From assembly GCA_964016885.1 (NCBI GenBank), contig OZ024761.1, forward strand, positions 26,598,001 through 26,662,000: DNA of 64,000 nucleotides. Reading direction: 5' to 3'. Of this stretch, positions 29,841-30,414 are shown piece after piece. A program made the position numbers and the translations under genes. Within the stretch, counting starts at the first letter, position 1, and every line of letters begins with the position of its first letter. The DNA comes from Eledone cirrhosa. Taxonomy: Eukaryota. The notes under the pieces were generated by a model. The model saw only the letters and a program-made list of their open reading frames with translations, did not search any database and was not told the DNA's origin.

Positions 29841-30042
29841 TATATATAGGAAAAGAGTCAAGACCCCGACGGCTGAACTCCGACGGTTTCGACAGCTAGA
29901 CCCGTTATGGTCCACCTGTTATCTTACCACACCTTCTTTGTTATATATATATATAGGTAAGTTATTCCGGGTTGAATCGGAGGGAACCACAGTAAGTAAG
30001 GTACTCAATACATAGCAGAGTATAAAAGTTTTAATTTCGATG

Positions 30043-30093
30043 AGATTCTACAGGACTAGAAATGTTTCATTCTTTAGAAATCATCAGGAATCT
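30043..30093 (-). ncRNA. type I hammerhead ribozyme (family D)
   Basis: Minus strand: AGATTC-CTGATGA-T TTC TAAA GAA T-GAA-ACA-TTTCTAGTCC-TG-TA-GAATCT; stem I 6 bp, GUA site. Confidence 0.75.
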
Positions 30094-30108
30094 GGCTCGA
30101 TTCTGGCC

Positions 30109-30159
30109 AGATTCCTGATGATTTTTAAAGAATGAAACAGTTCTAGTCCTGTAGAATCT
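30109..30159 (+). ncRNA. type I hammerhead ribozyme (family D)
   Basis: AGATTC-CTGATGA-TTTTTAAAGAAT-GAA-ACAG-TTCTAGTC-CTG-TA-GAATCT; stem I AGATTC/GAATCT, stem III ACAG/CTGT, weak stem II. Confidence 0.75.
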
Positions 30160-30414
30160 CATATATATATATATATATCGTGGTAAGAAACTCCCAGGAG
30201 ACCTGGATACCAAGGTCTTCAGAGAAGAAACCTCCCACGAAGCAACTGCTTCGGCCACTATTACCAATATTGATATTTTCCTCAGCCCCTCCCCCGCAAA
30301 AAACACCCCCCTCAACTATTTACATTACTCTTTAATTAATAAAAAAAAAAAAATCAGCAACAGCAAAAGACCCCAAATTAGTTATAGAAATGTTTTTTTG
30401 GGGGAGGGGAAAAA

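Follow-up and report, generated by a model that had tools for sequence, protein, structure and literature searches.

The question posed by this locus is why two hammerhead ribozyme (HHR) motifs lie back to back on opposite strands of a single palindrome, and whether the arrangement is a regulatory device or the residue of some other process. The palindrome sits in the 64-kb window analyzed here (the whole stretch of DNA, 64,000 nucleotides) of a 3.0-Gb genome rich in microsatellites. Its arms, 30040–30096 and 30106–30162, pair at 55 of 57 positions around a 9-nt loop (30097–30105), with mismatches at 30062/30140 and 30077/30125, in agreement with the arms of about 57 bp and the loop length given in the first-pass annotation. 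That annotation had also placed a hammerhead on each strand, and a motif scan finds type I cores at 30109–30159 (plus strand) and 30043–30093 (minus strand). The extent that it gave, 30040–30162, holds for the palindrome but falls short of the feature: the minus-strand arm extends past the palindrome to 29956, and the palindrome is the center of a 207-bp insert (29956–30162), both ends of which lie in (TA)n. We believe with reasonable confidence that a Penelope-like element (PLE) left this palindrome as a short head-to-head insertion, formed by two-ended priming on uncleaved, probably capped RNA; it is probably a by-product of the element's jumping and not a built-in ribozyme switch.

BLAST comparison with natural copies, together with the (TA)n flanks, identifies the whole insert as two head-to-head, 5'-truncated copies of a PLE pLTR, the arms of which match element positions +137 to −1 and −1 to +60, where +1 is the first base of HHR stem I and the cut is predicted between +45 and +46. 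The long arm (29956–30097, minus strand; element −4 to about +137) is of the AGCC subfamily and shows four private differences from a natural AGCC-type copy, with one more that belongs to the comparison copy. It includes a one-sided tail (29956–30026, minus strand) between two fixed 3' end points, which is confined to one arm both here and in 63 sampled pairs. The short arm (30106–30162, plus strand) spans element −3 to +54 and ends in (TA)n. Each arm bears one private change that weakens an HHR stem: in the minus-strand motif (30043–30093, predicted cut between 30049 and 30048), a G>U at +32 disrupts the fourth stem III pair, and in the plus-strand motif (30109–30159, predicted cut between 30153 and 30154), a C>U at +17 converts a stem II C–G to U–G. 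Directly 5' of the first base of the long arm stands an untemplated G (30098, minus strand) that was likely copied from an RNA cap, followed by a junction filler, GATTCTG (30099–30105, plus strand), in which GATTC repeats element +2 to +6, and from which we infer a likely short template jump. The (TA)n target lies at 29942–29955 on the left and 30163–30178 on the right, and any target-site duplication is illegible within it. The insert has no TATA box, and this copy looks dead; the locus itself is one decaying, ordinary copy without sign of a function of its own. Both flanks (29850–29942 and 30179–30245) are fragments of other TA-targeting repeats, in the TA ends of which the insert is nested, and the left flank repeat recurs in 20 of the fetched loci. 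Tandem arrays with periods of 128 nt and 85/175 nt lie beside the insert (30414–31098 and 31850–32540), and a crude, intron-blind ORF scan of the window revealed nothing clearly gene-like near the locus.

To which element do these arms belong? A DNA search returned 2,103 candidates; the 40 that were scored all match on both strands, and the 20 that were fetched, this locus included, are fold-backs in (TA)n with differing loops. Exact genome counts are 5,200 for a 31-mer of the HHR core and 7,968 for a downstream 30-mer in the tail. Upstream, longer copies take in a 3'UTR and then an ORF; downstream, they reach the start of that ORF. Uninterrupted natural ORFs exist, one of 713 aa, with 683 relatives at E ≤ 0.001 (7,997 scored). 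Pfam and PDB sequence searches left this ORF unidentified. A structure model of a 597-aa part (pLDDT 79.5) finds reverse transcriptases (RTs) with Foldseek, and in VIA-align its best match is yeast telomerase, at Z 17.1 (rmsd 4.6; 312 aligned), on a par with DRT2 and Candida TERT. The 713-aa ORF and its model thus present the single ORF with a telomerase-like RT that is expected of an EN+ PLE, and the copies show the expected pLTR with an HHR, an inverted 5'-truncated copy, and a one-sided tail. At its C-terminal end, this ORF carries DIVY..YIGMT motifs and a putative GIY-YIG endonuclease, to which Pfam gives a weak match (E 0.006) in one of 39 alignment members. Read by eye, the GIY-YIG core holds two Cys eight residues apart, with a Tyr where the second His of the CCHH motif, absent from the Hydra clade, would be expected. 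Measured against the motif set of the Hydra clade (PMC8557442, section 11, and supplement row Hydra-1_Obim, the parts of that source used here), the ORF has RWR at 38 and DKT at 116 and lacks DKG; among 79 long relatives, RW[KR] is found in 73 and DK[TS] in 77. The CxCx5C linker, CxxC, and CxH are present as CNCLNKETC, CDLC, and CMH, CX2-5CxxC is absent, and insertion is into (TA)n, a further trait of the clade. We therefore describe the family as a PLE with Hydra-clade motifs, a designation in which the endonuclease and the clade placement are motif-based and putative. The 3'UTR of the element (L052:6100–6890) contains several hundred bases of TA/TG microsatellite that travel with the element.

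To place the layout of the locus in the context of its family, we examined all 100 exact matches to the tail 30-mer in the first 63.7 Mb of contig C1, a sample that holds at least one duplicated locus (L202/L204). The first-pass annotation had proposed counting copies with and without the fold-back, and an adjacent inverted arm accompanies 63 of these 100 tail-anchored copies. This figure was reached after dropping 10 of 73 automatic calls (nine with TA-like tail matches only and one without an HHR) and is a lower bound, as distant inverted partners of long copies were left out. The back-to-back layout is the commonest form of the family. The tailed arms stop at +128 to +138 in 97 cases and run into the ORF in the other three. 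Nearly all parsed inverted arms (55 of 56) stop at +54 to +73, with peaks at +66 to +68 (30 arms) and at +60 (18 arms), where the element merges into TA, and seven further arms read by eye stop at about +52 to +67. In this RT-encoding family, then, each arm has its own fixed 3' end point. Small hairpins are predicted just downstream of each, and the pair of points corresponds to the two internal RT starts between which the PLE tail lies in vitro (available sections of PMC11167929). Genome-wide, 1,098 forward and 1,107 reverse matches (~1,100 loci) have both arms reaching +2 within 12 nt of one another. In the sample, nine of the 100 inserts are short palindromes in which neither 5' end lies beyond +2, and many inserts turn inside the HHR and destroy it.

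Other copies and layouts were encountered along the way. Older or partial family copies occur in the window at 59721–59851, 22839–22882, and 1–31, and fold-backs of other families at 20349–20481, 61368–61522, 21248–21350, 39061–39181, 25793–26062, and 28901–29083; two pairs among the latter have common sequence and similar turning points, so the layout is general in this genome. Genome-wide, the tail, G-start, and AGCC patterns are strand-balanced. The ACCC-type HHR pattern is skewed (4,350 forward and 1,734 reverse matches), which suggests that an HHR-bearing unit is repeated in tandem on one strand in a very large array. Short tandem arrays (L141:1500–2508, L142:1785–3084, L143:1506–2019, L144:1578–2105, and L068:231–919) have units of 190 to 265 nt comprising the HHR, the tail, and the ORF start; the unit border is mostly the same on both arms and different at each locus, and these arrays look like retrozymes arising from the 5' end of the PLE.

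The turning point is as sharply placed as the 3' ends. Among 126 paired arms, 80 start at −1 to +10, five at −20 to −2, and only four at +44 to +48, near the predicted HHR cut, some of the last explicable by stem I microhomology; for the tailed arms, 38 starts at −1 to +10 stand against six at −12 to −2 (p = 9e-7). With ends at −1 to +10 and few near the cut, the templates evidently had not been cleaved by the HHR, and some cause must terminate them at +1; we accordingly rejected HHR cleavage as the source of the 5' ends. TATAAA lies 30 nt upstream of +1 in the main subfamily and 31 to 33 nt upstream in the AGCC type, and CCAGATT fits the initiator consensus. At the position preceding +1, for which the template has C, 1,878 copies show a G and 420 an A or T. 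None of 30 fetched G loci continues the template, and nine of 30 fetched A/T loci are internal substitutions (eight flagged and one by eye). The partner strand would predict a G share of 26 to 39%, compared with 82% observed. An untemplated G stands on both arms at 160 loci, with a 1-nt spacer between the arms in 36 of the first 50 double-G loci read by eye. The 5' ends are thus piled at the first base of HHR stem I, with an untemplated G at that base. At the −4 site, where the long arm of our locus starts, 29 matches to G-AGCC comprise 25 junctions, three internal substitutions, and one ORF junction, and about seven non-G junctions occur among 30 fetched of 33. This start is minor; it also occurs with G in two of 75 ACCC-type copies, and its use specifically by one subfamily was not borne out. 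A 3' splice site at CAG (+2) joined to an upstream exon was likewise rejected, the upstream sequence varying among 32 G junctions, in which the sole donor-like match is the partner arm. A targeted literature search of partial coverage found no cap-G signature in PLEs.

Do the two arms derive from one template? In 38 of 40 pairs, the two arms carry the same stem II variants, against a mean of 15.1 and a maximum of 25 after shuffling; other differences in 29 pairs are shared in nine instances apart from +21 and private in 15. As the arms share stem II variants yet carry private changes, they appear to have come from a common source, either one RNA or one source locus, and to have decayed separately thereafter; matching variants cannot separate one RNA molecule, one source locus, and the copying of one arm off the other. 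The HHR is intact across its cut site. These features are consistent with the following route. After a cut in (TA)n, both DNA ends would prime reverse transcription on the element's uncleaved RNA, the transcription of which would start at +1, with the minor start at −4 used by the long arm of our locus. The RT would start internally near +67 and +136, both cDNAs would run to the 5' end of the RNA and gain the extra G from its cap, and the two would be joined by end joining or microhomology. The putative transcription start and cap are read from genomic junctions, and the hammerheads would come to lie back to back because the HHR is the first 51 nt of the transcript. We lean, somewhat less firmly than for the locus, toward the general form of this proposal: PLEs insert by symmetric double priming, in which both broken ends use the same capped sense RNA as template, starting at two fixed internal sites and running up to the cap, and the cDNAs are joined 5' to 5'. 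In this family, the main product would be a promoterless, doubled "strong-stop" DNA. If true, this product seeds thousands of tiny hairpin loci, the genome maps the transcription start with single-base precision and puts it on the ribozyme's first nucleotide, and the insertion templates are shown to have been uncleaved.

It is possible, although in our judgment unlikely, that a single cDNA instead folds back and self-primes the second arm, or that stem I complementarity fixes the turning point; self-priming on an antisense template has been proposed for PLE palindromes (available text of PMC3846280). The variants shared between arms fit such a route, as does the microhomology of 1 to 4 nt frequent at the junctions, and about half of the G junctions can also be read as partner-derived microhomology (1 to 3 nt). 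Stem I is self-complementary, and a cDNA end could pair with its own copy of +46 to +51 and add C, A, and T; junctions with CA, CAT, CATC, and CATCT do occur, about five of 30 G loci fit this extension, and one sampled insert (L168) joins +1 directly to +46. However, the full stem I snap-back is seen in one insert of 100, and the second arm stops at another fixed position of its own. In 18 of 23 asymmetric pairs, it is the arm without a tail that extends further 5' (p = 0.01), and the tailed arm therefore cannot be a copy of the tail-less one. A 1-nt spacer leaves no room for a loop, so that a G on both arms could not be copied by hairpin snap-back, and stem I cannot supply the G at the −4 site, where G junctions outnumber the non-G junctions.

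The possibility that the palindrome is a selected regulatory unit, whether a ribozyme off-switch or a purposeful source of dsRNA or small RNA, strikes us as very improbable. Both cores read AGAUUC-CUGAUGA-stem II-GAA-stem III-GUA-GAAUCU and so have the CUGANGA/GAA/UH core and three helices of a type I HHR. CUGAUGA is present in 356 of 383 family copies, a count that the search anchors partly dictate. At its base, stem II has U.U in both arms, as the first-pass annotation had noted, and in the family, in place of the G10.1–C11.1 pair that is conserved in closing stem II (PMC4209133, in part). Rfam returned no hammerhead family at gathering score or at E ≤ 10, and only sub-gathering matches to miRNA-like hairpins. 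Stem III had been described as looped rather than palindromic and so able to fold as a monomer; it is instead an imperfect palindrome centered on CUAG, for which pairing between two copies (−12.8 kcal/mol) is predicted to exceed the hairpin (−1.4). Stems II and III of the isolated arm are predicted at ≤2%; the arm is not predicted to take the HHR fold, and monomer folding is doubtful. As RNA, the palindrome has predicted folding energies of −92.9 and −88.6 kcal/mol (z-scores of −19 and −21 relative to 200 shuffles), and in the whole insert every HHR stem has a predicted probability of 0.00 on either strand. The suggestion that the hairpin competes with the ribozyme fold in read-through RNA therefore agrees with the models, in which such a transcript of the insert would be a dsRNA hairpin without ribozyme activity.

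In favor of a regulatory unit, any read-through RNA would form the 57-bp hairpin, silencing of the family could draw on about 1,100 similar loci, and there are signs that the HHR stems have been under selection in source lineages. In stem I, a compensatory pair occurs in five of 383 copies and a one-sided change in three, and stem II variation across the family falls mostly in the loop, a pattern that suggests selection in the source elements, with a bias from the search anchors. The built-in off-switch proposed earlier finds no support. On either strand, the antisense arm would be transcribed before the ribozyme, leaving no window for cleavage and no on-state, and the insert lacks a TATA box. 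Copies with this layout, some of them turning inside the HHR, are what the family usually leaves on insertion, and both 5' ends lie at or before +2 in only a small minority of inserts. The arms have decayed independently, with changes unshared at the locus and in the 29 pairs. The lack of an on-state and this decay make an evolved switch unlikely. The accompanying idea of a dsRNA source stands insofar as read-through would give a dsRNA hairpin, but a purposeful source is disfavored by the independent decay. A further type I HHR motif, whose stem II is long and whose stem III is a TA palindrome, lies in the window at 52902–52957 (plus strand).

We give marginally less credence still to the short palindrome being itself a mobile unit, MITE-like or retrozyme-like, and amplified as such. 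Identical junctions do recur on different contigs, as that would require, but a fixed RNA end predicts recurrent junctions anyway; same-junction loci (L400–L405) differ in stem II and tail variants, and the range of junctions and arm lengths is continuous, merging into that of long truncated copies. Finally, fold-back chimeras do occur in long reads, yet an assembly or chimeric-read artefact can be set aside as next to inconceivable, for the arms differ at two sites and have unequal fixed ends, the turning points cluster at one element position with fixed coordinates in many loci, and other fold-back joints of the family occur in contigs of public runs (the loop of this locus has no cover in contigs of four such runs, possibly from another individual, a hole that proves nothing).

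PLEs are the closest relatives of telomerase RT. The available sections of two sources name the origin of PLE inverted repeats as open (PMC8557442) and leave the choice between sense and antisense templates undecided (PMC3846280). That 160 palindromes carry an untemplated G on each arm, at a site with TATA spacing, favors a capped sense template and two-ended priming, and the family's junctions give exact coordinates for 5' RACE and in vitro tests of that origin. They also carry a warning that paired hammerheads in animal genomes can be insertion scars.

We compare the family with known systems through the available portions of the sources cited. Among the closest are the PLEs with HHRs of Schistosoma, in which dual minimal HHRs occur as opposite-strand pairs 100 to 700 bp apart (PMC4209133). 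The two systems share type I HHRs in pLTRs, opposite-strand pairs, and a dimer-type stem III, and the motifs of our family, known from sequence, may be likened to the Schistosoma HHRs of low activity (PMC4209133); unlike these, the pair at our locus is <20 nt apart, with a stem II of only 3 bp and U.U for G10.1–C11.1. More generally, cleavage by metazoan PLE HHRs is either weak or dependent on a dimer or protein (PMC4209133; PMC11167929). In vitro, PAc (Poseidon) cuts and extends both strands, with two internal starts on uncleaved RNA (PMC11167929), and shares with our family the two internal RT starts that bound the tail, the uncleaved HHR template, and a predicted dimer; the tail is about 70 nt in the family compared with 30 to 40 in PAc, and the portions of PMC11167929 available do not treat inverted products or 5' junctions. 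With the Hydra clade (PMC8557442), the family shares RW[K/R], DKT, the CxCx5C linker, CxxC, CxH, C-terminal endonuclease motifs, the HHR, and (TA)n, and differs, in this comparison by motifs, in the long 3'UTR microsatellite and the pair of cysteines that lies within the GIY-YIG core. Non-LTR retrozymes consist of tandem HHR-bearing monomers; the insert has no tandem unit, whereas other family loci have one. In the parts available, PMC13282606 and bioRxiv 10.64898/2026.07.22.740005 contain nothing on a back-to-back layout.

In L1, the mRNA cap is credited as the source of the additional G at full-length 5' junctions, and twin priming, like the route proposed here, primes both DNA ends (PMC11702581); twin priming copies adjacent parts of one RNA, whereas in our family a single stretch is copied into both arms, each of which can extend to the 5' end. 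For EN+ PLEs as a whole, head-to-head inverted, 5'-truncated pLTRs with a one-sided tail are standard anatomy (PMC8557442; PMC3846280; PMC2377424), junction palindromes and AT-rich targets are common to them and to our family, and TATA and Inr-like motifs have been noted in a PLE pLTR (PMC3846280). Relative to the published elements, our family differs in that its commonest product is a minimal, pLTR-only fold-back and that its turning point is fixed at the 5' edge of the HHR with an extra G, which points to a sense, capped template rather than the antisense template of PMC3846280. Within the sources compared, inverted pLTRs with tails are already published, and the cap-G signature on both arms may be new.
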